Of a DNA stretch of 64,000 bases, positions 40,394-63,043 are shown in pieces. Source of the DNA: a candidate division FCPU426 bacterium. Its GTDB lineage: Bacteria > Oederibacteriota > Muellerivitia > Muellerivitales > Muellerivitaceae. A program made the translations under genes and the position numbers. The stretch covers positions 32,001 through 96,000 of the forward strand of contig CAVYSE010000005.1 of the NCBI GenBank assembly GCA_963771075.1, read 5' to 3'. Position 1 is the first letter of the stretch. Each line of letters starts with the position of its first letter. The notes below the pieces were generated by a model that made no database searches, was not told where the DNA came from, and saw only the letters and a list, made by a program, of their open reading frames with translations.

Positions 40394-40603
40394 GGAGCGG
40401 CGCAAACCATGGGAGCAGGTCAGGTATTTACTGGAAAATGAATCGTTTATTCTGGGGAGAGTTATTGACCATGACGGGGACCCGTCGTGGACATGGGAAA
40501 TAACTCGTTTTAACCCCGATTAGGACAGAACTTTTACCCCTCCTGTTTCGTCCTATAATTATCCAGGTGTTTGTAGTCTCGTTTTCGGGAAAGAGGTAAA
40601 GCT

Positions 40604-41419: not shown

Positions 41420-41556
41420 GGCCGCAAGTGCGGGAAATCCGGTTACCGATTCCCTTCGGAAAACAATGAAAAAATGGTATTGATTTGTCCGGGATGTGAA
41501 GCTGTTTCAAGAATTGGAACAGGGGATTTTAGCGGGACACATTGGAATTCAGAAAT

Positions 41557-42372
41557 ATGAATAAAATCCCACAAACCGTATTGAAAGCATTCAATGTTGA
41601 AGCGGAAACGCAATTGTTGGATGGCGGCCAAGGTGAATCTTTTCGGGCGGGTAACATTGTCCTGAAACCAGCCCTCCTCGAAGCCGAATGGCTTGCCGAA
41701 AACCTTAAAGACTTAAAAGAAGATGGTTTCAGAATCCCAAGGCCCGTTTCAACAAGGGATGGGAAGTGGATCTTTGATCGATGGTGCGCCTGGACTTTTA
41801 TTTATGGCCGGCATGATCCCACGCGTGTGCAAGAGATAGTCCAAACCGCGAAGGTGTTTAATGCTTCGCTCAAGGGGTTTTCCAGGCCGGATTTTCTGGA
41901 TCAACGGCAGGATCCTTGGGCCATAGCGGATCGAATGGCATGGGGTGAGATTCCAATAGCTTGCCACCCCTCCCTTATGGTACCGATCAATAGAATTTCC
42001 GAACTTTTAAAACCGATTGATCTGCCGAGCCAGCTTATCCACTGTGATCTTATCGGCAACGTTCTTTTTGAGGATGAACATGCACCTGGAGTCATTGATT
42101 TTTCCCTTAACTGGCGGCCTCCCGATTATTCCCTCGCCATTATTGTGGTTGACGCAATGAACTGGAATGGCGCTGATGAATCAGTTCTGCGATATATTGG
42201 TGATGTTCCTGATTTTTTTCAGCTTTTGATCAGAGCCCAAATATTCCGCCTGGCTGTTTTGGAAGGATTTCGTCAAAGAGGGGCGGACATATCCCGAGGA
42301 ATAAGAGGAGAAGAAAGAACCGTTGAACTGATATGCGGAAAGCTCAAAGATAAATACCACAAAACTGCTTAA
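41557..42372 (+). CDS. APH-like phosphotransferase-family protein
   Basis: LDGGQG, VLKP, IHCDL.GNVLF, IDFS. Confidence 0.8.
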   Translation: MNKIPQTVLKAFNVEAETQLLDGGQGESFRAGNIVLKPALLEAEWLAENLKDLKEDGFRIPRPVSTRDGKWIFDRWCAWTFIYGRHDPTRVQEIVQTAKVFNASLKGFSRPDFLDQRQDPWAIADRMAWGEIPIACHPSLMVPINRISELLKPIDLPSQLIHCDLIGNVLFEDEHAPGVIDFSLNWRPPDYSLAIIVVDAMNWNGADESVLRYIGDVPDFFQLLIRAQIFRLAVLEGFRQRGADISRGIRGEERTVELICGKLKDKYHKTA

Positions 42373-42453
42373 GTAGGTTGTCCGCGACGGGGACCCATCG
42401 CGAACATCTAATGTGGGTTGGAGTTATACGATGGGCTATCGTATAATTAAGCT

Positions 42454-42669
42454 ATGAAAGTCACCGCGCTATTACCCGATAAACTAGTACGGGAAGTCCA
42501 AGGTTTTGCCAAAGGCAAAAACCTCACGGAATCGCTCGTCAAAGCATTATCGGAATGGAACCAACAACAAAAAATCAGGGATTTGAATCAACTGGTTCTT
42601 GAGCATCCCCTGGGTTTCTCCAAAACTTTTTCCGCCCCTCGCGTTCGAGCCAAAAACAGAAAATCATGA
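42454..42669 (+). CDS. Putative VapB-type antitoxin
   Basis: Small RHH-like protein (MKVTALLPD.LV); overlaps the PIN toxin start. Confidence 0.75.
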   Translation: MKVTALLPDKLVREVQGFAKGKNLTESLVKALSEWNQQQKIRDLNQLVLEHPLGFSKTFSAPRVRAKNRKS

Positions 42670-43040
42670 TCCTTGTCGATACCTCCATTTGGGTGGAGTT
42701 TCTCAAGGGGCATCAACCCTATTTTGATCAAATGAAACAATTGTTGGAGGAACGCCAAGTCCTTGCGGTCGAACCTGTTTTCGGCGAATTGCTCCAAGGA
42801 GCTAAAGATGACCGTGAAAGGCGGATTCTTCAGGGATTTTGGGAAAATCTTCCCAAAAATAAAATACAGGATGCCTGGGTGAAGGCGGGGGAATTATCCT
42901 CCCGAAAAAAATGGAGTGATCGCGGAATCGGATTGATCGACGTGGTCTTGATTATTTCCTCTCGGGATTCAAACGCAAAGATTTGGTCTTTAGATAAGAA
43001 GTTAAATAGCGTATTGCACAAGAATGAGATTTTTGAATAG
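42666..43040 (+). CDS. PIN-domain (VapC-like) toxin
   Basis: ILVDTSIW, ELLQG, GLID, WSLDK. Confidence 0.88.
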   Translation: MILVDTSIWVEFLKGHQPYFDQMKQLLEERQVLAVEPVFGELLQGAKDDRERRILQGFWENLPKNKIQDAWVKAGELSSRKKWSDRGIGLIDVVLIISSRDSNAKIWSLDKKLNSVLHKNEIFE

Positions 43041-43140
43041 CTTTGCTTGTTTACGATGAGGTCCCATCGTGGACATGAAAAATCATGGATAATGGGCTTG
43101 GTCTCCTTGTTCCACTATCCCAGTGAAAGGTAGTAAATAA

Positions 43141-44754
43141 ATGAAATACCAATGGTTGTTCGCGTTCTTGCTTGCAGTTCCATCCTGGGCCCTTCCCGCC
43201 GACAAGGCATTTGAATTATTTCCTCCGGCCAATAACGCCGCGCCGGAGACCTTTACCAAGGCGGTCCAACCCTTCCCGGCGGAGGGCAAGCCCTGGAAGT
43301 TCGCTCATGGCGCCAAGGTCCAGGTCAAGGTGGATGCCGCGCAGGTTCTGCAAAAGATCACCCCCTATCAATTCGGGTCCAATCTCGCCTGTTGGGATAA
43401 CAAACAATTCGTGAACGACCCGGATTGCCAGGAAAAGGTCAGGCAGGCGGGCATCCGGTTCTGGCGCTGGCCGGGAGGCAGTACCTCGGACAACTACCAT
43501 TGGGATGGCAAGTATGGGGACCATACCAAGGACCATGACGGGGGGAACCCGCCGAATATGAACGAACCCTGGGCCGCCTCCACCGACGATTTCATTTCCT
43601 TCTGCCAGAAGACGAATTCGGAAGCCATCGTGACGGTCAACTACGGCGCAGCCCGTTATGAGAATGTCCGGTACGCGGCCGACCTGGCCGCCCGGTGGGT
43701 GCATTATTTCAACTTCGAGAAGAATTTCAGGGTGCGTTATTGGGAGATTGGCAACGAGAATTTCGGGTCCTGGGAAGAGGGGAACCAGCTGGCAGGCAAA
43801 TCGCAATTGACCGGCGATGTCTATGGCAAGGATTTCCAGGTGATCGCCTCGGCCATGCGAAAAGTGGACCCGGACATCTTTATCGGGGCGGTGGCCGTGG
43901 ACAAGGACAGCGGGGATGATTGGAATGGTTACCACTGGTGGATGAGGGGCCTTCTGCCCCAGCTTCAACGGAAAGCCGATTTCCTGATCTTCCATGAATA
44001 TTTCATATGGCCCTTCGATGGCGCGAAAAACTATACCAATCCCAGCAACCAGGTTCTTCTGTCGAACCTTCACGAGATCCCCGACGCCAAGGCCGCTTTC
44101 GATGACATGGAAGACAAATACGCGCCGACCGAGAAGGGTTTGCCCATCGCCGCGACCGAGTTCAACATGATCAACGGCGATCCCCCCCAGACGATCCAAC
44201 TGTTGAACGGGTTATTTGCGGCGGAAGCCCTGGGGGAGATGATCAAGACGGGTTTCAAAAATTCCAACATCTGGGACCTGAAGAACGGCCTGGATGAGAA
44301 GCTCAAGGGGGACCATGGCTTGCTGGCCTATGGGGACTCCCGGATTCCGGCGGGTACACCCCGGCCGACCTATTACACTTACGCCCTTTATTCCCGGGCT
44401 TTCGGGGACACCCTGGTTTCGGCGGAGAGCGCGGACCCAACGGTAAAGATCTATGCCAGCCGTTTTTCGGGCGGGGAACTGGGTTTGGTCATCGTGAACG
44501 AGAATGACCAGAACCGCACGGCCGTTTTTGACCTGGCGGGGTTCAAGCCCCAGGGAAAACTGATGGGATGGGTCATGACCGGCAAGAATCTTAATGATTT
44601 TCAGGTTTCGTGGAACGGCGAAATGGGACCGGCGGGAGGGGGAGGGCCCTATCCCATCCAGACGATCCCGCCATACCGGGCCGTCTTCAAGACCAATCAA
44701 CCCCTCCAGCTACCCTTGCAAGCCAGGTCGGTTACGGGCCTTATCCTTTATTAG
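43141..44754 (+). CDS. Secreted clan GH-A-type glycoside hydrolase
   Basis: Signal peptide, RWPGGS.SD.YHW, YWEIGNE (acid/base), ATEFN (nucleophile), C-terminal beta domain. Confidence 0.8.
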   Translation: MKYQWLFAFLLAVPSWALPADKAFELFPPANNAAPETFTKAVQPFPAEGKPWKFAHGAKVQVKVDAAQVLQKITPYQFGSNLACWDNKQFVNDPDCQEKVRQAGIRFWRWPGGSTSDNYHWDGKYGDHTKDHDGGNPPNMNEPWAASTDDFISFCQKTNSEAIVTVNYGAARYENVRYAADLAARWVHYFNFEKNFRVRYWEIGNENFGSWEEGNQLAGKSQLTGDVYGKDFQVIASAMRKVDPDIFIGAVAVDKDSGDDWNGYHWWMRGLLPQLQRKADFLIFHEYFIWPFDGAKNYTNPSNQVLLSNLHEIPDAKAAFDDMEDKYAPTEKGLPIAATEFNMINGDPPQTIQLLNGLFAAEALGEMIKTGFKNSNIWDLKNGLDEKLKGDHGLLAYGDSRIPAGTPRPTYYTYALYSRAFGDTLVSAESADPTVKIYASRFSGGELGLVIVNENDQNRTAVFDLAGFKPQGKLMGWVMTGKNLNDFQVSWNGEMGPAGGGGPYPIQTIPPYRAVFKTNQPLQLPLQARSVTGLILY

Positions 44755-44978
44755 GTCGATAAGGTTGGCTTTCGACCGCAGCCGATAGATTAAACAGGTC
44801 TTGGACTGCCAATAAACCTTTTGTTACTTGTCCACGACGGGGACCCGTCGCGGACAGGTAATTCGAACCATGCCAACCCCCTTTTCAGGTCAAAGATTGA
44901 AGAGGTTTTAGATCCCATTGCAGGATTATCGATATAATGATATCATGATATCGTTACCATTCATTTGGGAGGAGACCC

Positions 44979-45230
44979 ATGGCCCAACTCATCGTTAGAA
45001 ATTTAGATGACAGCGTGAAGATGAAGCTGAGCCAAAGGGCCCGGAAGAATGGGCACAGCACGGAGGAAGAAGTACGGGATATCTTGAGAAACGCGGTAGG
45101 AAAAGATAGGGGCCTCGCCCCCATGCCATTGGGCGCCAGGTTTAAGGCGCGGTTTAGCAAGATAGGCCTAACTAGGGAAATCCCCGAATTGCGTGGACAG
45201 CAGGCCCAACCCGCCACCCTTGTCCCATGA
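44979..45230 (+). CDS. FitA-like RHH antitoxin
   Basis: MAQLIVRNLDD...RA..NG.S.EEEVRDIL. Confidence 0.88.
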   Translation: MAQLIVRNLDDSVKMKLSQRARKNGHSTEEEVRDILRNAVGKDRGLAPMPLGARFKARFSKIGLTREIPELRGQQAQPATLVP

Positions 45231-45646
45231 TCCTGCTCGATACAAATGTCCTTTCCGCATTGATGCTTCGGGAACCGGACCCTACGGTCGTTTCATGGCT
45301 GGATCGCCAGTCCGTTGAATCGGTTTGGACAACGACGATCACGGTATTTGAAATTCGGTTTGGCCTCGAGAACCTGGCGGGTGGGAAAAGACGGCGTCAG
45401 CTGGAAGAAATTTTTAACCAAACCCTGGAAATTGATTTGGAAGGCCGAGTCCTGCCATTTGACCTGGCCGCGGCCCGGGCGTCTGCCTCGATCGCGGCCC
45501 AACAAAGAAAAAGTGGGCGTCCGGTTGAGATACGAGATGTCCAGATTGCCGGGATCACTTTGGCCAGCAAGGCTACATTAGCCACCCGCAATATCCGGCA
45601 TTTCCAAGGGCTTGGTATCCATCTGATCGATCCCTGGAAAGCCTAG
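45227..45646 (+). CDS. FitB/VapC PIN toxin
   Basis: ILLDTNVLS, EIRFG, D.QIAGI, LATRN..HF, IDPW. Confidence 0.92.
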   Translation: MILLDTNVLSALMLREPDPTVVSWLDRQSVESVWTTTITVFEIRFGLENLAGGKRRRQLEEIFNQTLEIDLEGRVLPFDLAAARASASIAAQQRKSGRPVEIRDVQIAGITLASKATLATRNIRHFQGLGIHLIDPWKA

Positions 45647-45694
45647 CCTGTCCACGATGGGGACCCGGATTGGTCAAAGAAAGAAGGTTAGACA

Positions 45695-45973
45695 ATGGTA
45701 AATAAAAAGACGGTTGTGATGAAGATAAACATCAAGGCGTTCGGATTGGCTTGTGGTTTGTTGTGGGGTCTGGGAGTTTTAGGCCTGACTTGGTGGGTCA
45801 TCCTTTTCGAGGGGCCAACCCACGACCTGATGTTGCTTGGACACATCTACCGGGGTTATGACATCAGCCCCGCCGGAAGTTTGATTGGGACTGCTTATGG
45901 CCTGGTGGATGGAGGGGTGGGCGGCGTCGTTTTCGCCTGGCTTTATAACCTCCTCTGCGTCAAGTTCAAATGA
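45695..45973 (+). CDS. Small 2-TM membrane protein (holin-like size and topology)
   Basis: KAFGLACGLLWG...YRGY....GSLIG..YG..DG...AWLYN. Confidence 0.7.
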   Translation: MVNKKTVVMKINIKAFGLACGLLWGLGVLGLTWWVILFEGPTHDLMLLGHIYRGYDISPAGSLIGTAYGLVDGGVGGVVFAWLYNLLCVKFK

Positions 45974-46023
45974 TCAGGTGTTGAGGAATAGCTTGTCCAC
46001 GATGGGGACCCTTCGTGGACATC

Positions 46024-48000
46024 GTGCCAGCGAAGGTTTGTAGAGCCAGCAGGTGAGGGAGTAGGCCGAAGAGGGCCAGCCCAAATCCTGACCAGGTAAT
46101 CGCCAGAGAGCCTGGAAGTCAGCCCCCGGCGTAGGACCGAGAGGTTCTGCCCGAAACGGGGTCATAAACCTCATTCAGTGAGGGAACAATCTAGCAGTCC
46201 GCAACATCAAGTGAATCCTGCCGCGTCGTGAATGGGACACCGAAAGGTGCAAGAGGATGCCGAGCCGCGTGTCTACCGGCGAAGGCCACGATCCCGCTGA
46301 AGAATCTGGAGCAAGCGGGGCAAGTCCTCCGGCGTATGGGGAACGGAATGCTGGAAAGGCTTTGCAAGCAACCTGGGAGATCCTACCCGCCAAAAGACTT
46401 GCCGCTATAAGGCTAAAACCGAAAAGGGGCAAGGGCGGGAGGAAGTCGGAGGGGGTCACAATACCTGTGAAGGGTGGACAACAAAACCACCTGGAGGGAA
46501 GGACCCCTGCTTCAACCAAGCAACCTTCAAAAGGGAGGCGCTGGAGCATGCCCCAAAGGGCCAACAACTCCGAAGACAAGGCGCGAACCCTTCAAAGGGC
46601 GCTATACCGAGCGGCCAAGAGGAGCCCAAGCCGGAGATTTCATGTACTGCATGACAGGATGACCCGATGGGATGTCCTGACAGCGGCATGGAAACAGGTG
46701 AAGGCTAATAAAGGCCAAGGAGGAGTGGACGGGGAAACGCTGGAATGGATCGAAGAGAAGGTGGGAATTATTCCATTCCTGAAGGGCATCCAGGAAGAAC
46801 TCAAAGCTGGGAAGTATCTGCCTAAACCTGTGAGACGAGTGGAAATACCCAAGCCTGATGGAAGCAAGAGACCGTTGGGAATCCCGGTAATTCGGGATCG
46901 GGTAGTTCAAGCGGCTTGCCGGAAGGTGGTGGAACCCATCTTTGAGGCGGACTTTCTGGAAGGCTCGTTTGGATTTCGGCCAAAACGCGGAGCCCAGCAG
47001 GCCCACCGGGAGATCAAGAAGTGGATCAATGGCGGGTACAGATGGGTGGTGGATGGAGATATTCGGAAGTATTTCGATTCCATCGACCACGACAAACTGA
47101 TGGTGCTGGTGCGCCAGAGGATCAGTGACCGGAAGGTTTTGAAACTGATCCGAGGGTGGCTGAAGGCGGGTGTGTTTGAGGAAGGAAGGCTTACGCCGAC
47201 TCTCCGAGGGACACCGCAAGGCGGGGTGATCTCACCGCTGTTATCCAATGTTTACCTTCACTTGCTGGACAAGGTTTGGAATAAGAGGCACAGGAAACTG
47301 GGTAGGCTGGTGCGCTACGCCGACGATTTTGTGGTGTTGTGCGGAAGCCAAGCCCATGCGGAAAAGAGCCTGGAAGTCATCAAGGAATTGATGGGACGAC
47401 TAGGGCTTGAACTGCACCCCGAAAAGACACGGCTGGTGGAAATGGGGCCTGGGAAGGAAGGGTTTGACTTCCTTGGGTTCCACTTTCGAGTAGGTATGCC
47501 GGTGGTAGGATTGGGTAAGACCTGTTGCCTGAGCTGGCCGAGCCGGAAGGCCATGAAGAAAATCGCCGAGAAAGTGAAGCAGATGACGGCGGGCCGAGAG
47601 CGGCTCTTATCTCCAATGGAGGATGTAGCGAAGGCTTTGAACCCGGTGTTAAGGGGGTGGGCCAACTATTTCCGAATTGGGGACAGCCAGCCATACTTTT
47701 CCAAGCTTCAATTTTACGTACTCGAAAGGCTGACTTTGTTTCGGAGGCATAAGTACGCCTGGGAAGGACGAACATGGTCGATCGAGGAAGTGAAACGCCT
47801 TGGTTTGAACTGGATTCCAGCTTTTGCCTTGAATGCTGCCGGTTGAAAGGTTGTCGGAAAGCCGTATGATCGAAAAGGTCACGTACGGTTTGATGAGGGG
47901 GCGCTGGAAACGTGGTGATGAGAGCCGGACTGAGGCCCAATCCGAAAGGGTTGGATTCGCCACCGTACTCTAAGGCATACGCGCCAGCGCTCTACTCTGC
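46024..48000 (+). mobile_element. Group II intron, copy 1 (1977 nt)
   Basis: 5' GTGCC; RT ORF; domain V GAAAGCCGTATG...CACGTACGGTTTG; domain VI ending CTACTCTGC. Boundaries set from the three-copy comparison plus the GUG start and branch-A spacing. Confidence 0.92.
46548..47846 (+). CDS. ltrA: Group II intron reverse transcriptase/maturase, no endonuclease domain
   Basis: RPLGIP..RDRVVQ, GFRP, GTPQGGVISPLL.N, RYADD, FDFLGF, LRGWANYF. Start placed at 46548. Confidence 0.95.
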   Translation: MPQRANNSEDKARTLQRALYRAAKRSPSRRFHVLHDRMTRWDVLTAAWKQVKANKGQGGVDGETLEWIEEKVGIIPFLKGIQEELKAGKYLPKPVRRVEIPKPDGSKRPLGIPVIRDRVVQAACRKVVEPIFEADFLEGSFGFRPKRGAQQAHREIKKWINGGYRWVVDGDIRKYFDSIDHDKLMVLVRQRISDRKVLKLIRGWLKAGVFEEGRLTPTLRGTPQGGVISPLLSNVYLHLLDKVWNKRHRKLGRLVRYADDFVVLCGSQAHAEKSLEVIKELMGRLGLELHPEKTRLVEMGPGKEGFDFLGFHFRVGMPVVGLGKTCCLSWPSRKAMKKIAEKVKQMTAGRERLLSPMEDVAKALNPVLRGWANYFRIGDSQPYFSKLQFYVLERLTLFRRHKYAWEGRTWSIEEVKRLGLNWIPAFALNAAG

Positions 48001-48036
48001 ACGAAAAGTCACGCATAAGAGGCAGTTTATGATTAG

Positions 48037-48456
48037 TTGGCCAATTTGAAAAAGATTAAACCCTGGGTGAAATTTTGGTTATTCGCAGGAACTTTATTAT
48101 TTGGTTACGTGTTTTGGGGGTTGGTTGAAGAAGTTGCTTTCAATAATCGATTTTTTATCCCCACTTTGAGTTCTCGGATGGTTCGGTTAACCGGGTTCAT
48201 TCATTTTCGCATAATCGACTTTTGGTGTTCCAATTGTATCTACGTTTTAGACAGTTCTGGCTCCCAAATTAAAGTGATCGTTCCCCAAAAAGTCCAAGAC
48301 GAAGTTCGGAGAACAAATTGGGGAGATTTAAAAAAGAACGGGAAAACAGTATTTGTTGACTTGAATGCAATATCTGGGGGTCTCGGGGATTATTATGTTT
48401 GTACGAGAGTCAATTCGATTAATGTCGTTGATGGAGTTGTTTCAGTAAGCAAATAA
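48037..48456 (+). CDS. Hypothetical cassette protein (N-terminal TM)
   Basis: AT-rich ORF filling the space between intron 1 and the repeat at 48471. Confidence 0.6.
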   Translation: MANLKKIKPWVKFWLFAGTLLFGYVFWGLVEEVAFNNRFFIPTLSSRMVRLTGFIHFRIIDFWCSNCIYVLDSSGSQIKVIVPQKVQDEVRRTNWGDLKKNGKTVFVDLNAISGGLGDYYVCTRVNSINVVDGVVSVSK

Positions 48457-48550
48457 TTCACATGAAGAGCTGTCCACGACGGGGACCCGTCGTGGACGAT
48501 GTTTTTAAGTTTATTACCCAAATTATAAGTTCTTTCAGATTGGATGTTTT

Positions 48551-49936
48551 ATGAAGAACCGATGGCAATGGGCGGTGACGATTGGGGCTGTCCCACTCTA
48601 TTACCTCCTTTCGCTTATTCCTCTTTATCATTACCCTAATTTTACTAATTCCCATGTAGGCAATCCGCCTATTGGATTGTTCGCACTTGGCCCAACACCG
48701 ATCTATAGTGGTTTTGTATTTGTAGAAATCATTTCCATCCTGGTCAATCCTTTAAAGCGATGGAGAACACAAGGGATGGCAGGCAGGGAAAAAATACATC
48801 GAGTTCAGCTTATTTTTATGTTTCTTGCAGCCATGTTTCAGGGATGGGGCACGGGTGAACTTATTAAAACTTTTGGCCCCGATTACACGGTGGAAATATT
48901 TGGAACGACCGGACTAGCCGCTCAAATTATTCTGTGTTCCTGTTTGGTTAACGGCGTCTTGATCTTCTACTTGATCGCTACAAATGTGTCCCTGTATGGT
49001 TTGTTCAATGGTTTTATTCTTTTCCTTTTCGTACGGCCCCTGGTGTCGAAAACTCTGGGTCTCATCGATGGAATCCAAACGGACTTACGCTTGCCCGTTG
49101 ACCTTCACTTTTCTAATTTTGATGAAAAAATGAATTTTATATATTTCTTTTTCGTCCTTGTAGGCGTGGGGTTTGTTCTGTACCAAAAACGAAAGAAAAT
49201 ATTAGAACTTATTTATCATTATGTGCTTCGTAACCCATTGGTTGGCTATCAAACAAAAGAAAAATTGTATCAAGTGAAAACTTCGCCCGTTCCTCAAACG
49301 TTAACGGGTGGTTTGGGTGTTTTGGTGCTGATTCTACAAATGGTTTTGTACCAACATGGCGCTTTTTCGGATAACGGGACTTTGCGAAATGTGCTATGGG
49401 TCGGGGCGGATATGATTGATCTGGGTGTGACATCTTTTTTACTTTGGCTTTTATTTACCAACACCTACTGGGTCGATCATCATCTGGAAGGACGGGCGTC
49501 TTGGCTTCCTGAACGGGACAAATTGAAGCCTTATTTTATTTTTTGGCTTGTGATGTCCGCTTTCGCAGTATTAATAAATGAGTCACCATTGTTTTTCCAT
49601 TTTTCATTAACTATTGAAAAATTGAGCCGTATTTTTCTTGAGCCTATTTTCATCCTGACGACGGTCATTTTAGGGATAGAAATTTACGAAAAATGGCAAT
49701 TCGAGCAAAGGTCGATTCAAAAAGTATGCCTGGCCGAAATGGATAATGTGGAATTGGTCCAGCTTTGGGTGGCCCAACTTGAAGAGGCGAATCTTTCCTT
49801 TCATGTGGAGGGCCTTCGTTATAGGCAACTTACGCAATTCTTTGCGCCTTATTTGAAAATGAGGCTGTTTGTGGATGAAAGTCAGGCCCAGGACGCGGTA
49901 AGCATCATTCGTTTAGAAGAAGTTAAGCAAATATAA
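48551..49936 (+). CDS. Polytopic membrane protein with SecY-like N-terminal half and DUF2007-like C-terminus
   Basis: GLFALGPTPIYSG..., G..GR.KI, A.FQG, YGLFNG resemble SecY TM2-TM5 motifs. Confidence 0.6.
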   Translation: MKNRWQWAVTIGAVPLYYLLSLIPLYHYPNFTNSHVGNPPIGLFALGPTPIYSGFVFVEIISILVNPLKRWRTQGMAGREKIHRVQLIFMFLAAMFQGWGTGELIKTFGPDYTVEIFGTTGLAAQIILCSCLVNGVLIFYLIATNVSLYGLFNGFILFLFVRPLVSKTLGLIDGIQTDLRLPVDLHFSNFDEKMNFIYFFFVLVGVGFVLYQKRKKILELIYHYVLRNPLVGYQTKEKLYQVKTSPVPQTLTGGLGVLVLILQMVLYQHGAFSDNGTLRNVLWVGADMIDLGVTSFLLWLLFTNTYWVDHHLEGRASWLPERDKLKPYFIFWLVMSAFAVLINESPLFFHFSLTIEKLSRIFLEPIFILTTVILGIEIYEKWQFEQRSIQKVCLAEMDNVELVQLWVAQLEEANLSFHVEGLRYRQLTQFFAPYLKMRLFVDESQAQDAVSIIRLEEVKQI

Positions 49937-50057
49937 TGTGGGAGTTCGCTGTCCACGATGGGGACCCGTCGTGGACAAGCTTTAGTCACAAGGCCAAGAT
50001 GAAAATTCAAAATGGGTGATTATTGAAAACTGAGAAGGTGGAAAGAAGCTTAACCCA

Positions 50058-50558
50058 ATGGAAAATTCTTACAATTTAGAAAAAACTATTTGGTCAGAAG
50101 CCGACTTTGAAAAAATGTGTTGGCATGATGTTCATGTCCATGGAATTTCGTTTGGGCCAATGTCGGAAGAAAACGGAACGGCCGATTTTTTATTTGATAT
50201 TGATTACCTCTTTGAATGGATAAAACCCATTGCGCCTGAAATTTTCTATAGCTTTTGGATAGCCCCATGCACTCTCGTTTTTGAAAACGCGTATGACTTT
50301 AAAATGCAAATAGAAGACAAAATAGGTTTTGCTTTCGGTCCCTTTGTAATAGAAGATTTTTCAATGGCTGAGAACCTGGAACGGGATGGCGTTCATTACG
50401 GTTACCGTTGGAAAATCAAACTTAGAACCGGGTGGATAGAATTGAAATCCTACGGATTAAAACAATACGTTCGCCAAAAACCGAGAGTGGGTGGCCAATG
50501 GTTGTTATTTGAAGAACGGGCCGGTGTGAATTATCAAAAAAAATATTCCGGGTCGTAA
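50058..50558 (+). CDS. Hypothetical cassette protein
   Basis: AT-rich ORF between the repeats at 49950 and 50563. Confidence 0.75.
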   Translation: MENSYNLEKTIWSEADFEKMCWHDVHVHGISFGPMSEENGTADFLFDIDYLFEWIKPIAPEIFYSFWIAPCTLVFENAYDFKMQIEDKIGFAFGPFVIEDFSMAENLERDGVHYGYRWKIKLRTGWIELKSYGLKQYVRQKPRVGGQWLLFEERAGVNYQKKYSGS

Positions 50559-50592
50559 GGGTTGTCCACGATGGGGACCCATCGTGGACATC

Positions 50593-52569
50593 GTGCCAGC
50601 GAAGGTTTGTAGAGCCAGCAGGTGAGGGAGTAGGCCGAAGAGGGCCAGCCCAAATCCTGACCAGGTAATCGCCAGAGAGCCTGGAAGTCAGCCCCCGGCG
50701 TAGGACCGAGAGGTTCTGCCCGAAACGGGGTCATAAACCTCATTCAGTGAGGGAACAATCTAGCAGTCCGCAACATCAAGTGAATCCTGCCGCGTCGTGA
50801 ATGGGACACCGAAAGGTGCAAGAGGATGCCGAGCCGCGTGTCTACCGGCGAAGGCCACGATCCCGCTGAAGAATCTGGAGCAAGCGGGGCAAGTCCTCCG
50901 GCGTATGGGGAACGGAATGCTGGAAAGGCTTTGCAAGCAACCTGGGAGATCCTACCCGCCAAAAGACTTGCCGCTATAAGGCTAAAACCGAAAAGGGGCA
51001 AGGGCGGGAGGAAGTCGGAGGGGGTCACAATACCTGTGAAGGGTGGACAACAAAACCACCTGGAGGGAAGGACCCCTGCTTCAACCAAGCAACCTTCAAA
51101 AGGGAGGCGCTGGAGCATGCCCCAAAGGGCCAACAACTCCGAAGACAAGGCGCGAACCCTTCAAAGGGCGCTATACCGAGCGGCCAAGAGGAGCCCAAGC
51201 CGGAGATTTCATGTACTGCATGACAGGATGACCCGATGGGATGTCCTGACAGCGGCATGGAAACAGGTGAAGGCTAATAAAGGCCAAGGAGGAGTGGACG
51301 GGGAAACGCTGGAATGGATCGAAGAGAAGGTGGGAATTATTCCATTCCTGAAGGGCATCCAGGAAGAACTCAAAGCTGGGAAGTATCTGCCTAAACCTGT
51401 GAGACGAGTGGAAATACCCAAGCCTGATGGAAGCAAGAGACCGTTGGGAATCCCGGTAATTCGGGATCGGGTAGTTCAAGCGGCTTGCCGGAAGGTGGTG
51501 GAACCCATCTTTGAGGCGGACTTTCTGGAAGGCTCGTTTGGATTTCGGCCAAAACGCGGAGCCCAGCAGGCCCACCGGGAGATCAAGAAGTGGATCAATG
51601 GCGGGTACAGATGGGTGGTGGATGGAGATATTCGGAAGTATTTCGATTCCATCGACCACGACAAACTGATGGTGCTGGTGCGCCAGAGGATCAGTGACCG
51701 GAAGGTTTTGAAACTGATCCGAGGGTGGCTGAAGGCGGGTGTGTTTGAGGAAGGAAGGCTTACGCCGACTCTCCGAGGGACACCGCAAGGCGGGGTGATC
51801 TCACCGCTGTTATCCAATGTTTACCTTCACTTGCTGGACAAGGTTTGGAATAAGAGGCACAGGAAACTGGGTAGGCTGGTGCGCTACGCCGACGATTTTG
51901 TGGTGTTGTGCGGAAGCCAAGCCCATGCGGAAAAGAGCCTGGAAGTCATCAAGGAATTGATGGGACGACTAGGGCTTGAACTGCACCCCGAAAAGACACG
52001 GCTGGTGGAAATGGGGCCTGGGAAGGAAGGGTTTGACTTCCTTGGGTTCCACTTTCGAGTAGGTATGCCGGTGGTAGGATTGGGTAAGACCTGTTGCCTG
52101 AGCTGGCCGAGCCGGAAGGCCATGAAGAAAATCGCCGAGAAAGTGAAGCAGATGACGGCGGGCCGAGAGCGGCTCTTATCTCCAATGGAGGATGTAGCGA
52201 AGGCTTTGAACCCGGTGTTAAGGGGGTGGGCCAACTATTTCCGAATTGGGGACAGCCAGCCATACTTTTCCAAGCTTCAATTTTACGTACTCGAAAGGCT
52301 GACTTTGTTTCGGAGGCATAAGTACGCCTGGGAAGGACGAACATGGTCGATCGAGGAAGTGAAACGCCTTGGTTTGAACTGGATTCCAGCTTTTGCCTTG
52401 AATGCTGCCGGTTGAAAGGTTGTCGGAAAGCCGTATGATCGAAAAGGTCACGTACGGTTTGATGAGGGGGCGCTGGAAACGTGGTGATGAGAGCCGGACT
52501 GAGGCCCAATCCGAAAGGGTTGGATTCGCCACCGTACTCTAAGGCATACGCGCCAGCGCTCTACTCTGC
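50593..52569 (+). mobile_element. Group II intron, copy 2
   Basis: Same sequence as copy 1 by inspection (offset 4569); same encoded protein. Confidence 0.92.
51117..52415 (+). CDS. ltrA: Group II intron RT/maturase
   Basis: Translation identical to copy 1. Confidence 0.95.
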   Translation: MPQRANNSEDKARTLQRALYRAAKRSPSRRFHVLHDRMTRWDVLTAAWKQVKANKGQGGVDGETLEWIEEKVGIIPFLKGIQEELKAGKYLPKPVRRVEIPKPDGSKRPLGIPVIRDRVVQAACRKVVEPIFEADFLEGSFGFRPKRGAQQAHREIKKWINGGYRWVVDGDIRKYFDSIDHDKLMVLVRQRISDRKVLKLIRGWLKAGVFEEGRLTPTLRGTPQGGVISPLLSNVYLHLLDKVWNKRHRKLGRLVRYADDFVVLCGSQAHAEKSLEVIKELMGRLGLELHPEKTRLVEMGPGKEGFDFLGFHFRVGMPVVGLGKTCCLSWPSRKAMKKIAEKVKQMTAGRERLLSPMEDVAKALNPVLRGWANYFRIGDSQPYFSKLQFYVLERLTLFRRHKYAWEGRTWSIEEVKRLGLNWIPAFALNAAG

Positions 52570-52610
52570 ATGAAAAGTACCAATGGAGCGTCTGATAGGG
52601 TGAGGTATTA

Positions 52611-53588
52611 ATGGGATTTTTTGAAGAATTCAAAAAACTGCTGTGGCTCTACAACCCCCTTAAAAAATCTGGAAGGCCTGGGGAGATTAAGAGCCGAGGC
52701 ATCAACGGAGCTGTTTTTTGCCCCATTTACAACCATTGGATTTCCAACCTTGAGTGTTTAGAAACGAGCGGGGAGCGCGGCTCCTACGACGAAATTGACA
52801 AACCCGATTTAAATCATTTGGAAACCGGCTACAACGATATTCATAACGCGACTAAACGTAGCGGGCATAAATTCCCCCAAGACATTAAAAAAGTGGTCAT
52901 TACCTGTGAGTATTGTGAAGCCTACTGCCTCGGCCAGGAAAATGGACCTCTAGTAGTCCCTCCCATTGACAGTATCGATCGAAAGAAATTGTTGTTCGAT
53001 TTATATGACGAAAGTAAAAGATATTCAAAAGACACCATTGACCCAACGGAATTGGAGAAGATTAAAAAGGCAGCCATGGAACTGAGCGAAAAAGCCGGAA
53101 AATACTTGGCCGAACATCTGAACCTTGAAAAAGAAATACGCGAAATAACAGTCGAATTCGAAGCGCAAGAAACTGGAAAAACGGGTTTTTGGATCATTCT
53201 TTTTGGCCTCGTTTTTGCTGTCGCCGGATTCGGGAATCTTTGGAATGTCAACTGGTTCGCTCATAAAGCCTTTCAGGGGAAAGGGGCTGTTTTGTCGGTA
53301 GAGAAAAAAGAAGCGACCGACAGTGGCAAATGGATTGCCCGGGTCCGATATACCCCTCGGAATTACCCAGAAGTCGTCGCTGAGCTTGAAGTTGAAAAAC
53401 CTTATGAAACAAATCAATTGGTAGAATTTCTTTATGACCCACAAAACCCCAATAAGCTACGGCCCGCCAGCTGGTCAAAAAAAAGTCCGCTGACCAATTT
53501 CTTTTTGGCGATAATTGGCATTGTTGTCATCGGGTTCGGCTGGAGCAAATTAAAAGTTGCCAGGCCTTTTTATCCGAAAAGGGGTTAA
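52611..53588 (+). CDS. Hypothetical membrane protein with DUF3592-like C-terminus
   Basis: TM-beta-YDPQNP-TM layout; RBS GAGG. Confidence 0.65.
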   Translation: MGFFEEFKKLLWLYNPLKKSGRPGEIKSRGINGAVFCPIYNHWISNLECLETSGERGSYDEIDKPDLNHLETGYNDIHNATKRSGHKFPQDIKKVVITCEYCEAYCLGQENGPLVVPPIDSIDRKKLLFDLYDESKRYSKDTIDPTELEKIKKAAMELSEKAGKYLAEHLNLEKEIREITVEFEAQETGKTGFWIILFGLVFAVAGFGNLWNVNWFAHKAFQGKGAVLSVEKKEATDSGKWIARVRYTPRNYPEVVAELEVEKPYETNQLVEFLYDPQNPNKLRPASWSKKSPLTNFFLAIIGIVVIGFGWSKLKVARPFYPKRG

Positions 53589-53612
53589 AAGGTTGCTATG
53601 AGGCCATTCCTC

Positions 53613-53802
53613 AAGTTCAATTAAGCCCACCCGTCAGCCTTTTGGTTTCGCGGATTCACGCTGCTATTCGTGCTCGAGGCACAAGTTAAAAATTCGATAA
53701 TCCAGTAGGGAAGCCACCAGCTGTCCATCGTGCCTTACGGCACCACCAAATTCCGTGGTCATTCCAAAGGGATCGAATCACAAAACCGAGGCTGAAACCT
53801 CT
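53613..53802 (-). ncRNA. Candidate seek/bridge RNA of the IS1111-type element
   Basis: Two similar hairpin units 60 nt apart, each next to a 7-mer: one matches the target repeat, the other the predicted circle junction. Confidence 0.65.
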
Positions 53803-54873
53803 TTAGCGCATGGGCCGATACACTTCCTTCCGAACCAACATCGTCCAAAGGTGAATCAAAAGCTTGTGCGCCATTGCCACAATCGCCTTGTTGACGTGTC
53901 CCGTATTACGGACCAGTCGACGAAAAACACGGTAGGCCTGGGTATCCTTTTGGATCCATGACCAGGCCGCTTCAACCAAGGTCGCTCTCAAAGTGCCTTT
54001 TCCGGCCTTCTGTAAATGGCCTTCCTTCCGGGTTTCACCGCTTTGCCTGATCCTAGGGGCCAACCCCACGTAAGCCGCCACTTGTTTGGCGTTTTCAAAG
54101 CGTTCCGGCTGGTAAATCTCCGTTAATACTTGCAGGGTCGTCACTTCGCCCACTCCTGGGTGGGTTCTCAGGATCTTGGCCTTTTTCTCGTAGGCCTTCT
54201 CCTTCATCATGACCCTCAAACGTATGTTCACGTCCTTGAGCTGCCTATCAAAGTAAAAAAGATCTTCCAATAGGCGATCCAAGGTGAACCTCAGGGCAGG
54301 TGGCAGTTCCATTTCCCGTAATATCCCAATGGCTTCGTGGGTCCAGTAATCCAACCCTCTGGGAGTTTTGAGCCCATATTGAAGGAAGAAGCTCTTGATC
54401 CTTTGTTTGGCCTTGCGTTTCTGCTCGACCATCGCGTTCCTCAAACGAACCACCTGCCGGTCAGCTTCTTCCTGGAGGGTTGGGATCGCCACCGCCTTCA
54501 GCAATTCTTTCTCCGCATACTCCGCCAGTTTGCTACAGTCCAAACGGTCGGATTTTGTTTCAAACTGCGACACGCGAGGAGTCTTGTGCGGGGCGATGAC
54601 ATCCAATGGGTATCCCTCCTCCCGAAGGCGGCGGGCCAGGCCAAAACCGGTAGGGCCTGCCTCGTAGACGACCTTTTTCAACCCCACCCGATAAGGCGCC
54701 AGGACCTTCACCACCGCCTCCCAGTCCGCTGTCAGGGACTTTGTTCCGACTTCCTTTCCGTTAATCCTGATTGCCATATAAATACTTCGTTTGTGGACAT
54801 CCAATCCCACAAACACAGCGTCCCGCTTGGATACCTCCTTGCCTCGGTATCCTTTTTTGCTAATCTGTTTCAT
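53803..54873 (-). CDS. IS110-family DEDD transposase/recombinase
   Basis: VGLDVHK, YEAG, KSDRLD, PGVG, YVGL.P...QSG, A..A.A.KL. Confidence 0.95.
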   Translation of the reverse strand: MKQISKKGYRGKEVSKRDAVFVGLDVHKRSIYMAIRINGKEVGTKSLTADWEAVVKVLAPYRVGLKKVVYEAGPTGFGLARRLREEGYPLDVIAPHKTPRVSQFETKSDRLDCSKLAEYAEKELLKAVAIPTLQEEADRQVVRLRNAMVEQKRKAKQRIKSFFLQYGLKTPRGLDYWTHEAIGILREMELPPALRFTLDRLLEDLFYFDRQLKDVNIRLRVMMKEKAYEKKAKILRTHPGVGEVTTLQVLTEIYQPERFENAKQVAAYVGLAPRIRQSGETRKEGHLQKAGKGTLRATLVEAAWSWIQKDTQAYRVFRRLVRNTGHVNKAIVAMAHKLLIHLWTMLVRKEVYRPMR

Positions 54874-55059
54874 GGCCATTCCTCCTTGTGAGTTGCCTGC
54901 TCACCGGGACTAGTTTAATCCCGGCGGAGGAATGGCCTTCATGTTACCTGTCCACGACGGGGACCCGTCGTGGACACCTAATTCTGACGTGGCTTTGGAT
55001 AAACCTCTTTGCTTTAGTCATGGGTGATAAGGACTGAATTTTAGGACGAAAGGAAAACC

Positions 55060-55644
55060 ATGAAAACCGTTCTTGTTATTTTAGCATTGATCGTTTTGGT
55101 TTTTTTCTTTTGGAAGTTCAAATCCCGGCGTCTTTTTGACCCGGAAGCCCTCATGCCGGGTTACGCACAGAAGGCCATCTCGACCGCCAAGGAAAAGTAT
55201 GGCCTCACTTTGGATCTGGACGAAAAAAACTTGAAAGTTCTTGAGATGAAAATTATGAGGCCGCTAAGTGAAGAGTTTAAGAAAAAAGCCTTATCGGACG
55301 AAGAACTTGCGAACAATTGCATTCTTTGGGGGGCTTATCTGGGGGAAATGTTAAAGAAGGCTTCGCCCTACTGGTCTCAGGCCCATTGGAGATTAAATGA
55401 TTCAGAAAAAGGCCAACAAACAATTAATCCAAACCAGATTGGTTTGGCGGGAAAGGATTTTGTGGTTTATCCCGGTGCTTGGGTTCAAAAACATATCGAA
55501 GACCCTATAAACGATAATTTCGTGGGAAAGTATGAATTAGCTTATCAACTGCCAAACACGGATCAGAATAAAAAGGGCACTCAGGGTCAGCTGATAGATA
55601 AAGATGGGAACCCTATCAAAATGCGATATATGCCTGAAAAGTAA
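55060..55644 (+). CDS. Hypothetical cassette protein (N-terminal TM; GAYLGE motif)
   Basis: RBS AAGGA; fills the interval between the repeats at 54949 and 55663. Confidence 0.75.
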   Translation: MKTVLVILALIVLVFFFWKFKSRRLFDPEALMPGYAQKAISTAKEKYGLTLDLDEKNLKVLEMKIMRPLSEEFKKKALSDEELANNCILWGAYLGEMLKKASPYWSQAHWRLNDSEKGQQTINPNQIGLAGKDFVVYPGAWVQKHIEDPINDNFVGKYELAYQLPNTDQNKKGTQGQLIDKDGNPIKMRYMPEK

Positions 55645-55692
55645 TAGATTGTTTGGTGAAGTTGTCCACGACGGGGACCCATCGTGGACGTC

Positions 55693-57669
55693 GTGCCAGC
55701 GAAGGTTTGTAGAGCCAGCAGGTGAGGGAGTAGGCCGAAGAGGGCCAGCCCAAATCCTGACCAGGTAATCGCCAGAGAGCCTGGAAGTCAGCCCCCGGCG
55801 TAGGACCGAGAGGTTCTGCCCGAAACGGGGTCATAAACCTCATTCAGTGAGGGAACAATCTAGCAGTCCGCAACATCAAGTGAATCCTGCCGCGTCGTGA
55901 ATGGGACACCGAAAGGTGCAAGAGGATGCCGAGCCGCGTGTCTACCGGCGAAGGCCACGATCCCGCTGAAGAATCTGGAGCAAGCGGGGCAAGTCCTCCG
56001 GCGTATGGGGAACGGAATGCTGGAAAGGCTTTGCAAGCAACCTGGGAGATCCTACCCGCCAAAAGACTTGCCGCTATAAGGCTAAAACCGAAAAGGGGCA
56101 AGGGCGGGAGGAAGTCGGAGGGGGTCACAATACCTGTGAAGGGTGGACAACAAAACCACCTGGAGGGAAGGACCCCTGCTTCAACCAAGCAACCTTCAAA
56201 AGGGAGGCGCTGGAGCATGCCCCAAAGGGCCAACAACTCCGAAGACAAGGCGCGAACCCTTCAAAGGGCGCTATACCGAGCGGCCAAGAGGAGCCCAAGC
56301 CGGAGATTTCATGTACTGCATGACAGGATGACCCGATGGGATGTCCTGACAGCGGCATGGAAACAGGTGAAGGCTAATAAAGGCCAAGGAGGAGTGGACG
56401 GGGAAACGCTGGAATGGATCGAAGAGAAGGTGGGAATTATTCCATTCCTGAAGGGCATCCAGGAAGAACTCAAAGCTGGGAAGTATCTGCCTAAACCTGT
56501 GAGACGAGTGGAAATACCCAAGCCTGATGGAAGCAAGAGACCGTTGGGAATCCCGGTAATTCGGGATCGGGTAGTTCAAGCGGCTTGCCGGAAGGTGGTG
56601 GAACCCATCTTTGAGGCGGACTTTCTGGAAGGCTCGTTTGGATTTCGGCCAAAACGCGGAGCCCAGCAGGCCCACCGGGAGATCAAGAAGTGGATCAATG
56701 GCGGGTACAGATGGGTGGTGGATGGAGATATTCGGAAGTATTTCGATTCCATCGACCACGACAAACTGATGGTGCTGGTGCGCCAGAGGATCAGTGACCG
56801 GAAGGTTTTGAAACTGATCCGAGGGTGGCTGAAGGCGGGTGTGTTTGAGGAAGGAAGGCTTACGCCGACTCTCCGAGGGACACCGCAAGGCGGGGTGATC
56901 TCACCGCTGTTATCCAATGTTTACCTTCACTTGCTGGACAAGGTTTGGAATAAGAGGCACAGGAAACTGGGTAGGCTGGTGCGCTACGCCGACGATTTTG
57001 TGGTGTTGTGCGGAAGCCAAGCCCATGCGGAAAAGAGCCTGGAAGTCATCAAGGAATTGATGGGACGACTAGGGCTTGAACTGCACCCCGAAAAGACACG
57101 GCTGGTGGAAATGGGGCCTGGGAAGGAAGGGTTTGACTTCCTTGGGTTCCACTTTCGAGTAGGTATGCCGGTGGTAGGATTGGGTAAGACCTGTTGCCTG
57201 AGCTGGCCGAGCCGGAAGGCCATGAAGAAAATCGCCGAGAAAGTGAAGCAGATGACGGCGGGCCGAGAGCGGCTCTTATCTCCAATGGAGGATGTAGCGA
57301 AGGCTTTGAACCCGGTGTTAAGGGGGTGGGCCAACTATTTCCGAATTGGGGACAGCCAGCCATACTTTTCCAAGCTTCAATTTTACGTACTCGAAAGGCT
57401 GACTTTGTTTCGGAGGCATAAGTACGCCTGGGAAGGACGAACATGGTCGATCGAGGAAGTGAAACGCCTTGGTTTGAACTGGATTCCAGCTTTTGCCTTG
57501 AATGCTGCCGGTTGAAAGGTTGTCGGAAAGCCGTATGATCGAAAAGGTCACGTACGGTTTGATGAGGGGGCGCTGGAAACGTGGTGATGAGAGCCGGACT
57601 GAGGCCCAATCCGAAAGGGTTGGATTCGCCACCGTACTCTAAGGCATACGCGCCAGCGCTCTACTCTGC
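55693..57669 (+). mobile_element. Group II intron, copy 3
   Basis: Same sequence as copy 1 by inspection (offset 9669). Confidence 0.92.
56217..57515 (+). CDS. ltrA: Group II intron RT/maturase
   Basis: Translation identical to copy 1. Confidence 0.95.
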   Translation: MPQRANNSEDKARTLQRALYRAAKRSPSRRFHVLHDRMTRWDVLTAAWKQVKANKGQGGVDGETLEWIEEKVGIIPFLKGIQEELKAGKYLPKPVRRVEIPKPDGSKRPLGIPVIRDRVVQAACRKVVEPIFEADFLEGSFGFRPKRGAQQAHREIKKWINGGYRWVVDGDIRKYFDSIDHDKLMVLVRQRISDRKVLKLIRGWLKAGVFEEGRLTPTLRGTPQGGVISPLLSNVYLHLLDKVWNKRHRKLGRLVRYADDFVVLCGSQAHAEKSLEVIKELMGRLGLELHPEKTRLVEMGPGKEGFDFLGFHFRVGMPVVGLGKTCCLSWPSRKAMKKIAEKVKQMTAGRERLLSPMEDVAKALNPVLRGWANYFRIGDSQPYFSKLQFYVLERLTLFRRHKYAWEGRTWSIEEVKRLGLNWIPAFALNAAG

Positions 57670-57695
57670 ACCTTTTTTAGTGTTAAGGAGGTTTA

Positions 57696-58313
57696 ATGGT
57701 AGCCCAATTTCCCGATATTACCTTTGAAGGTCCGCTCATATCAGATCAAAATTTTCTAAACGCTCTCCCTGAGGATTTAAAATCAATTCTCAAAATAAAA
57801 AATGGTTTTATCGCTTTTGCCGGTGGATTTCACATGAGAGGGATTTGCGAAGAACCTAGTTGGCATTCGTGAGAACTGTTTTGGACCGGTAAGCATTCCT
57901 TTTCGAAATTGTATTCTTCTATTCAAAAAGACGATGTACCTTTTGGACAAGATTGCTTGGGTGATCAGTTTATTTTAAGAAAGAACCAAGTATTACGTCT
58001 TAGGGGTGAATCGGGAGACATTGTAGATATGAAAATGGATTTATTAACTTTCTTGGATGAAGCTGAATCAAATCCTTTTGATTTATTAGAACTAGCTCCT
58101 TTGAAGCGAATTCAAAACGAAGGAAAAAAACTGGAGCCCGGCCAATTAATTAATGTGTTTCCTCCCTTTATTACCGCAGAGAGCCGTAAAGGCGTTTCAT
58201 TGAAGCCAATACCAACCGTCGAAAGAATCTTGTTTCTTTCCGATCTTGCTAAACAAATTTCCAATATTTCTGACGGTACACAAGTTAAATTCAATATAAG
58301 CTCTAAGGGGTAG
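57696..58313 (+). pseudogene. SMI1/KNR4-like immunity-type cassette gene with a premature stop
   Basis: RBS AAGGAGG and ATG at 57696 in frame with the 57909 ORF; TGA at 57870-57872; LP.D, NGF, PFGQDC.GDQF. Confidence 0.65.
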
Positions 58314-58382
58314 TTTGAGGGCTTAGCGATTGTCCACGATGGGGACCCATCGTGAACAAGGGAATTATGAGGTTTGTAATAA

Positions 58383-63031: not shown

Positions 63032-63043
63032 TAAGATCCGCAA

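Follow-up and report, generated by a model that had tools for sequence, protein, structure and literature searches.

Insertion of group II introns and an IS1111-type element at the edges of a cassette-separating palindrome in a candidate division FCPU426 bacterium

Introduction

Why are a group II intron and an insertion sequence (IS) found at the ends of the same short palindrome? The question is raised by a stretch of 64,000 nt (hereafter the window; positions 32,001 to 96,000 of contig CAVYSE010000005.1, assembly GCA_963771075.1) from a candidate division FCPU426 bacterium. In the window, three identical group II introns adjoin the 28-bp sites starting at 45994, 50563 and 55663, and one IS110-family element of the IS1111 type adjoins the site starting at 54949 (Table 1). 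An initial annotation proposed that two RNA-guided elements converge on opposite edges of an intact, abundant and long-lived site, that the case parallels the parasitism of attC sites, and that elements beside the site may travel with excised cassettes. Our analysis makes it probable that the intron and the IS share one bond, directly after TGGACA, at a palindrome separating gene cassettes, and that each is guided there by RNA. Compared with the earlier picture, the case is stronger in convergence (the same bond, four lineages) and weaker in the intactness of the site and the travel of the elements. Below, G000 denotes the genome under study, other G numbers the genomes of relatives and L numbers fetched loci; the pooled set of 419 sites comprises those of G000 and of the fetched loci of eight relatives.

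Results

Insertion points of the intron and the IS

The 28-mers at all four occupied sites are complete, as had been proposed, with one arm mismatch at 45994 and a terminal G at 55663. Again in agreement with the initial annotation, the IS enters the 54949 copy at its TG, the first two bases. An identical junction is found for the other IS copy of the genome (C9:3204), so that both IS copies (2/2) are at a site. Read in its own direction, the IS is inserted after GTGGAC(A), as is the intron.

The introns had been placed 2 nt past the last base of the palindrome; the actual distance is 0 nt, the TC in question being the intron's own start. Three cassettes are known with and without the intron (L031 and G000 C21:4929, L212 and L084:14833, L097 and G000 C26:80206), and in the empty alleles the 3' exon follows GACA without a gap. 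In the genome, each of the 12 intron 5' ends lies directly behind a site and starts with TC, a dinucleotide that begins only 3/395 downstream and 6/412 upstream (reversed) empty flanks in the 419-site set. In distant relatives (80 loci from many phyla with 46-56% identity, the loop or 5' end being unparsed in about one third), the pairing of exon-binding site 1 (EBS1) lies flush against GUGCG and starts at base 3 of the corresponding 9-nt loop. From the empty alleles, the rarity of TC and the flush EBS1 of the distant relatives, we concluded that the intron starts with UCGUG, a variant of GUGYG, 0 nt past the site. Its first and penultimate bases covary: among 30 complete introns, which are related copies and not 30 independent events, U1 occurs with a GC end in 25 and G1 with an AC end in 5, with 0/30 exceptions. 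The empty alleles and this covariation ruled out both an offset of 2 nt and an intron extended at its 5' end. The first and penultimate bases have been described as forming a non-Watson-Crick contact (PMC4238363); the occurrence of U-G in place of G-A offers a natural test of a contact which that source infers from mutants.

The element was identified as a group II intron by matches to RF00029 and RF02003, by the RVT_1 and GIIM domains of its encoded protein, and by the fold of domains V and VI with a bulged A. Its open reading frame (ORF) probably starts at ATG 46548, as judged from the reading frame and a ribosome-binding-like sequence. Derivatives of 798-800 nt without the ORF fill many sites (G000 C2:57335-58048; G027 L099, L100, L102, L209, L212 and L213) and are likely to be mobilised in trans. 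Five edge introns of G027 (L028, L038, L045, L071 and L077) contain another IS110-family element, just before the ORF or near domain V, which is a nested parasitism. The edge intron of L031 (G021) carries a second, unrelated intron in its domain IV region.

Guides and targets

The EBS1 sequence UGUCUAC is complementary to site positions 22-28 and the predicted EBS2 to positions 16-20. In close relatives located off the repeat (L048, L050 and L030; EBS2 read by eye), the two sequences differ in step with the target, and EBS1 also changes with the target in the distant relatives, 0/80 of which have the repeat nearby. The motif composed of the two intron-binding sites (IBS2 and IBS1) and a following A has 73 matches in the genome, 55 of them in the repeat.

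The IS shows sub-terminal inverted repeats with an 11-bp perfect core, and their distances from the ends fit the rule published for IS1111 elements, namely repeats of 11-13 bp at a distance of 7 bp on the left and 3 bp on the right (PMC11187229). Such repeats, together with a long non-coding region 3' of the transposase, constitute the IS1111 pattern (PMC11187229, PMC11208160). Downstream of the transposase, one stretch reads the same as the left flank and another is complementary to the flank on the right. When 17 distinct guides were compared with their own junctions, the left guides gave 60 against 17.8 after permutation and the right guides 107 against 39.6 (0/10,000 permutations); the comparison covered relatives and metagenome contigs with one locus per guide, 7/37 loci being unparsed and L065, in which the right end is rearranged, being omitted. 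A single-sequence fold of the predicted guide RNA was not better than shuffles (z -1.08). The complementarity and covariation of guides and targets in both elements support the proposal that both are RNA-guided in design and aimed at the repeat.

Use of the two edges

Among the 419 sites, edge introns occupy 21 downstream and 4 upstream edges (21 sense and 4 antisense), the insertion being at GGACA/A. In the genome under study, 4/12 intron 5' ends are on the upstream edge, which is the edge of the IS. Conversely, of eight close IS copies (at least 87% identity), three are on the downstream edge (L058, L063 and L249), four on the upstream edge (the two in the genome under study, L065 and L069), and one, L067 of G027, lies off-site at a non-palindromic sequence fitting its guide. 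The 3' flank of the L058 IS equals an empty cassette start at G000 C26:139747. The opposite-edge arrangement thus describes the four sites of the window and does not extend further, as 4/12 introns use the IS's edge and 3/7 site-associated close IS copies the introns' edge; it is a sampling effect, because the two elements share the bond and both use either end. ACC begins 79/411 upstream but 27/396 downstream flanks, and the edge preference of this IS may follow its right guide.

Close homologues of both the intron and the IS sit at the repeat in relatives, and the concern that homologues elsewhere might lack the association therefore does not apply to them. Four family IS copies at 61-63% identity and 23/24 metagenome loci examined are without the repeat, and six of the metagenome loci (L257, L259, L260, L264, L267 and L270) were seen by eye to lie near the end of a different inverted repeat. 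One IS candidate in G002 proved to be a cassette start and was left out. In the IS copies of G027 (L058, L063, L065 and L067), the right end, consisting of the inverted repeat and terminal bases, is tandemly duplicated.

Abundance of the site and shuffling of cassettes

The genome contains 99 sites at a position weight matrix score of at least 18, against 0 in the reversed-genome control. They are grouped in 27 clusters in which 70/72 neighbouring sites are co-oriented. The longest ORF is co-oriented with the sites in 50/55 between-site segments, and the GC content of these segments is 44.5% compared with 53.2%. The site pattern was found in 26/30 same-family genomes, in 1/1 of the sister family and in 0/29 others of the phylum; the 99 copies and the 26 family genomes bear out the view of an abundant and long-lived repeat. 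The genome also has 13 copies of a longer, 65-bp form of the site, in which a 35-bp hairpin occupies the centre and mimics a left arm with its end (e.g. C26:73645, C26:134343 and C5:98233).

Among the 385 unoccupied sites, 115 pairs have a common downstream flank and 69 a common upstream flank, yet only 2 have both, from which we concluded that cassettes are shuffled. Minor alleles at position 19 track the downstream cassette in 8/8 cases and the upstream cassette in 0/8 (clusters of at least 95% identity), and single cases at positions 11 and 18 bound the exchange point to site positions 12-17. Position 16 is variable (C in 369/419) and positions 12-15 are near-invariant (408-415 of 419). Since the exchange maps to the centre of the site, an edge-inserted element lies inside a cassette and would move with it. 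In contigs from four public runs, the listed joints rest on the repeat itself (side of at most 32 letters) and provided no evidence of excision; the small shares in RNA runs likewise provided none of expression. Viral contigs showed no exact match to the site and contained one recombinase relative at 55%. At G000 C26:138200-143840, part of an array is inverted and duplicated around a partial intron, possibly as an assembly artefact.

Further intron lineages at the site

A second intron lineage splits the site between positions 11 and 12, as seen in 10 of 12 copies in G027, two pairs of which possibly represent one locus each, and also in G020 and G021. A third lineage splits the site between positions 19 and 20 (2 copies in G004). 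The EBS1 of each matches its own insertion point. In a phylogenetic tree the three lineages are on separate branches, the place of the third being uncertain owing to long branches, and every subclade of the edge lineage has a sister with another target. The site is therefore left intact at the four occupied sites of the window and not as a general rule, because two other lineages insert within it. Doubly parasitised sites were also observed: in G027 a centre intron accompanies an edge intron, and contigs from two public runs combine an IS with a centre intron. In G000 C3:168524-169960, a truncated centre-type intron lies in a site with its junction three bases off 11|12, followed by an antitoxin/GNAT pair.

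Candidate recombinase

A short serine recombinase of 275-283 aa has catalytic and recombinase domains but lacks a zinc ribbon, and it constitutes a separate clade (19 clusters); a 277-aa member lies at G000 C8:80002-80811. The gene of the short recombinase ends adjoining a site in 10/11 loci of the clade, the exception (L124) being an N-terminal fragment; full-length relatives do not end adjoining a site. The ratio of nonsynonymous to synonymous substitution rates was 0.08-0.16 in 7/10 pairs, and 3 pairs were saturated. Published contacts of the recombinase domain at about positions 9-11 of the half-site, with those of the zinc domain further out (PMC3783163), fit the 13-bp arms. On this sequence evidence, the site is likely to be the crossover site of the short serine recombinase (13-2-13).

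A split integrase was rejected, since no C-terminal remainder (zinc ribbon or coiled-coil) was found in the genome, and in the fetched loci of relatives this part occurs only inside full-length genes. The integron integrase model TIGR02249 was over the cut-off in 0/31 genomes and also in none of 14 control genomes, hence this search had no positive control. No tyrosine recombinase was found next to arrays in the genome under study. Tyrosine recombinases of about 370 aa are expanded family-wide (G000 C7:97616, C7:108212, C3:383300, C27:55398 and relatives), and here they are not array-adjacent. Of 20 Y1 transposase matches in the genome, a few are near arrays but have their own inverted ends.

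Features of the window

The coordinates of the array and its elements are given in Table 1.

Table 1. Features of the cassette array in the window (positions of the 64,000-nt stretch)
Feature	Position	Strand	Remarks
Whole array	40466..58358	+	12 co-oriented 28-bp sites; single genes or toxin-antitoxin pairs in between
Array site starts	40466, 42379, 43048, 44829, 45649, 45994, 48471, 49950, 50563, 54949, 55663, 58331	+
28-bp palindromic site (13-GA-13)	45994..46021	+	Downstream edge occupied by intron copy 1
Group II intron, copy 1	46022..48000	+	1979 nt; starts UCGUG, ends CUCUGC; IIB-type (class E/F-like features)
Predicted EBS2 (AUGGGAC)	46232..46238	+	Complementary to site positions 16-20; read by eye
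EBS1 loop (CG UGUCUAC)	46268..46276	+	Last 7 nt complementary to site positions 22-28
Intron-encoded reverse transcriptase/maturase	46548..47846	+	RVT_1 and GIIM; endonuclease domain not found
Intron domains V and VI	47857..48000	+	V: AGC triad, 5-nt loop; VI: long stem, bulged A 7 nt from end
Cassette gene, 139 aa	48037..48456	+	Without Pfam match
28-bp site	48471..48498	+	Empty
Cassette gene, 461 aa	48551..49936	+	SecY-like membrane protein (Pfam E 9.7e-10)
28-bp site	49950..49977	+	Empty
Cassette gene, 166 aa	50058..50558	+	Without Pfam match
28-bp site	50563..50590	+	Occupied by intron copy 2
Group II intron, copy 2	50591..52569	+	Identical to copy 1
Cassette gene, 325 aa	52611..53588	+	Without Pfam match; between intron copy 2 and IS
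IS110-family (IS1111-type) element	53595..54949	-
Right sub-terminal inverted repeat	53598..53612	-
Non-coding region downstream of transposase	53600..53800	-	Predicted bridge/seek RNA
Predicted donor guide	53661-53668	-
Predicted left target guide	53721-53728	-
Predicted right target guide	53745-53752	-
IS110-family transposase, 358 aa	53803..54879	-	DEDD_Tnp_IS110 PF01548 9.6e-12; Transposase_20 PF02371 2.1e-24
Left sub-terminal inverted repeat	54927..54942	-
28-bp site	54949..54976	+	Upstream edge occupied by IS
Cassette gene, 194 aa	55060..55644	+	Without Pfam match
28-bp site	55663..55690	+	Last base G; occupied by intron copy 3
Group II intron, copy 3	55691..57669	+	Identical to copy 1

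The cassette gene after intron copy 3 (57697-58313) has an apparent in-frame TGA interruption near 57870. At the end of the window (63633-64000) lies a gene for a ParB-like membrane protein with further copies at G000 C21:996-2853, C9:1-1850, C3:1790-3281 and C13:206-1697. This gene, with a conserved leader containing partial GTCCAC repeats, directly precedes the first site of several arrays, and the two together are possibly a promoter or a primary-site platform; the ParB-like gene was ruled out as a recombinase, having no recombinase domain in Pfam. Positions 63000-63630 contain a Y1 (IS200-like) transposase element with an internal deletion and inverted repeats of 28 bp (63329-63356 and 63602-63629); about 16 related Y1 matches occur genome-wide. 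An S-adenosylmethionine (SAM) riboswitch (RF00162) at 35866-35997 precedes a gene for an enzyme dependent on pyridoxal phosphate.

Discussion

A proposed mechanism for the shared insertion point

Each element likely finds the site by pairing a short RNA guide with the outer arm of the palindrome, as judged from the complementarities described above. In the predicted reverse splicing of the intron, EBS1 would contact site positions 22-28 and EBS2 positions 16-20, and an A adjoining the site on the outside would also take part. For the IS, recombination of the circle would rely on two guides, the left one for TGGAC(A) and the right one for the adjacent bases beyond the site (ACC here). The symmetry of the palindrome lets either end serve as a target, and which end is used probably varies with the 1-3 bases of the flank and with variants of the arms. 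Crossing over by the short serine recombinase would make the site abundant and regenerate it, and an element at the edge would lie inside a cassette, leave the site whole and move with that cassette.

Several observations weigh against this explanation. Of 31 family genomes, 5 were found to have the short recombinase intact and 2 others to have fragments of it, and with the query used it is missing from the repeat-rich G002, G003 and G008. As for the guides of the IS, those permuted in the comparison are related, so that it overstates independence; the right guide of this element forms no more than 3 base pairs with its own targets, and of 81 genomic matches to its motif TGGACAACC only 14 lie in the repeat, so that pairing alone may not explain the specificity of the IS. 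Flank frequencies leave the 21:4 bias of the introns unexplained, A starting 229/396 downstream and 277/411 upstream flanks. The exchange is placed no finer than positions 12-17, with one informative case per side. Finally, the travel of elements with cassettes, which follows from the geometry of exchange at the centre, has no case in its favour: a search for an intron or IS accompanying one cassette in two contexts was negative, the 3' flanks of the 30 complete introns are all different, and where flanks do agree, in two G027 pairs of contig ends, each pair is probably a single locus.

Alternative explanations

Two alternatives concern the way in which the elements come to be at the site. Both might recognise the palindrome as a hairpin, as class IIC introns and ISPpu10 do, with RNA pairing setting only the exact bond. 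A perfect 13-bp hairpin directly 5' of both insertion points and the frequency of the IS pairing motif off the repeat (67/81 matches) agree with this, and ISPpu10 requires a target stem-loop as well as pairing (10.64898/2026.03.19.712850). We nevertheless think it unlikely, as EBS2 and the 7-nt EBS1 covary with non-palindromic targets in close intron relatives, the symmetry is broken in many occupied sites, and the IS of L067 fits its guide at a site without a palindrome; hairpin recognition can hold as an extra layer for the IS. Alternatively, insertion might occur wherever guides match, with survivors remaining only at the ends of intergenic repeats, in which case intactness and hitch-hiking would be irrelevant. 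This is possible, although we are inclined to doubt it. It accords with the splitting of the site by two other intron lineages, one with 10 such copies in G027, with the failure to find a hitch-hiking case and with the use of other targets by most relatives, but it leaves unexplained why the guides of at least four separate lineages match one site. Survivor selection and guide matching are compatible with RNA-guided insertion at a shared bond, from which only the hitch-hiking step differs.

The remaining alternatives concern the identity of the repeat. If it were a minimal or degenerate attC site, its parasites would be ordinary IIC-attC introns and IS1111-attC elements; the arrays with toxin-antitoxin genes and low GC content, and ends (GTCCAC/GTGGAC) that loosely resemble attC boxes, are reminiscent of this. 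However, neither attC box (R'' RYYYAAC, R' GTTRRRY) occurs in any of the 99 sites (0/99), no genome of the 31 has an integron integrase over the cut-off, the exchange is at the centre and not at an end, and the intron is not of class IIC and is mostly sense. An attC identity is largely refuted, and we give it hardly any credence. The repeat might instead be a repetitive extragenic palindromic (REP)-like element spread by a transposase, or a tyrosine recombinase site (11-6-11), the short serine recombinase being a passenger or a split integrase. IS110-family elements, among them IS621, ISPa11 and ISPpu10, often target REPs (PMC11187229, PMC11208160), 28 bp fits 11-6-11 with a spacer equal to the mapped interval 12-17, and the short recombinase is patchy. 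On the other hand, a GTAG end is found in 0/99 sites, and the sites with one co-oriented gene between them are neither dispersed nor arranged as inverted doublets, unlike those of REPs and their associated transposases (RAYTs). Moreover, position 16 varies while 12-15 do not, a zinc-ribbon/coiled-coil remainder was not found in the genome under study, and the short protein is a conserved clade. This reading appears rather improbable to us.

Comparison with known systems

Class IIC introns have a short domain V with a CGC triad. They are further characterised by an EBS1 of 3-4 bp and the lack of an EBS2 (PMC7923331, PMC3753933). In contrast, the edge intron has a 7-nt EBS1, an EBS2 that tracks the target, an AGC triad and a 5-nt domain V loop, and because of its EBS2 it is not a IIC intron as defined in PMC7923331. 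Its insertion at GGACA/A, mostly sense, also differs from that of IIC-attC introns, which enter antisense at TTGT/T on the attC bottom strand. IIB introns are known in cassette arrays (PMC7923331). The edge intron resembles groups IIE and IIF, g2-g6 included (PMC3753933, PMC3552965), in having no endonuclease domain, a 5-nt domain V loop, EBS1 with EBS2 and, as in IIF, a long domain VI, a label resting on features and not on phylogeny, our tree being without named reference introns; it differs from them in its non-standard covarying ends (U first, G penultimate) and in homing to a multi-copy site.

The attC parallel stands as a likeness of ecology and not as membership. In integrons, IIC-attC introns and IS1111-attC elements enter attC sites close to one end and in antisense orientation (PMC3001079). 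In both systems a cassette-boundary site is hit near one end by an intron and an IS1111-type element (ISPa21, ISPst6 and ISKpn4 in the attC case; PMC3001079, PMC7923331, PMC11187229), the parasitised site remains usable, and, as in integrons, co-oriented single-gene cassettes are arrayed and shuffled. Here, unlike in integrons, the site is a 28-bp palindrome and no IntI was found; the IS target lacks the boxes that mark the targets of the IS1111-attC subgroup; both ends and both orientations are used, with introns mostly sense; and two more intron lineages insert inside the site. With the IS110/IS1111 elements that target REPs (IS621, ISPa11, ISPpu9 and ISPpu10; PMC11208160, PMC11187229, PMC12288879, PMC1525189), the present IS has in common an RNA guide matching an abundant intergenic palindrome and natural reprogramming of that guide among relatives, and it differs in that its target is a cassette exchange site in co-oriented arrays which is common to introns. 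The case works like attC and REP parasitism and is a member of neither attC group.

The candidate enzyme and its probable site share with large serine integrases and att sites (PMC3783163) the catalytic and recombinase domains and palindromic arms around an asymmetric dinucleotide; they differ in lacking the zinc ribbon and coiled-coil and in having sites all of one kind. Deletion of the coiled-coil was inactive in an integration assay (PMC3783163), and activity of the short protein is thus not assured. No paper on this site or system was found in a literature search limited largely to freely accessible articles, and 10.64898/2026.10.21.760802 makes no mention of cassette, integron, palindrome or serine recombinase.

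Biological meaning

Selfish RNA-guided elements mark abundant, long-lived DNA sites. That four lineages are aimed at one 28-mer is therefore independent evidence for a functioning recombination site, as opposed to debris, and it suggests that the guides of introns and IS1111 elements could lead to other non-integron cassette systems. The 17 IS guides with matched targets and the EBS1/EBS2 swaps between close introns also form a natural reprogramming series. Evenly balanced, in our judgement, is the wider proposal that a serine-recombinase cassette system unrelated to integrons has independently recruited a guild of RNA-guided parasites, in which at least three intron lineages and one IS1111 lineage were reprogrammed, two of them onto the same edge bond, and ride with moving cassettes. 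If this is true, the guild would repeat the attC ecology of integrons with different parts.

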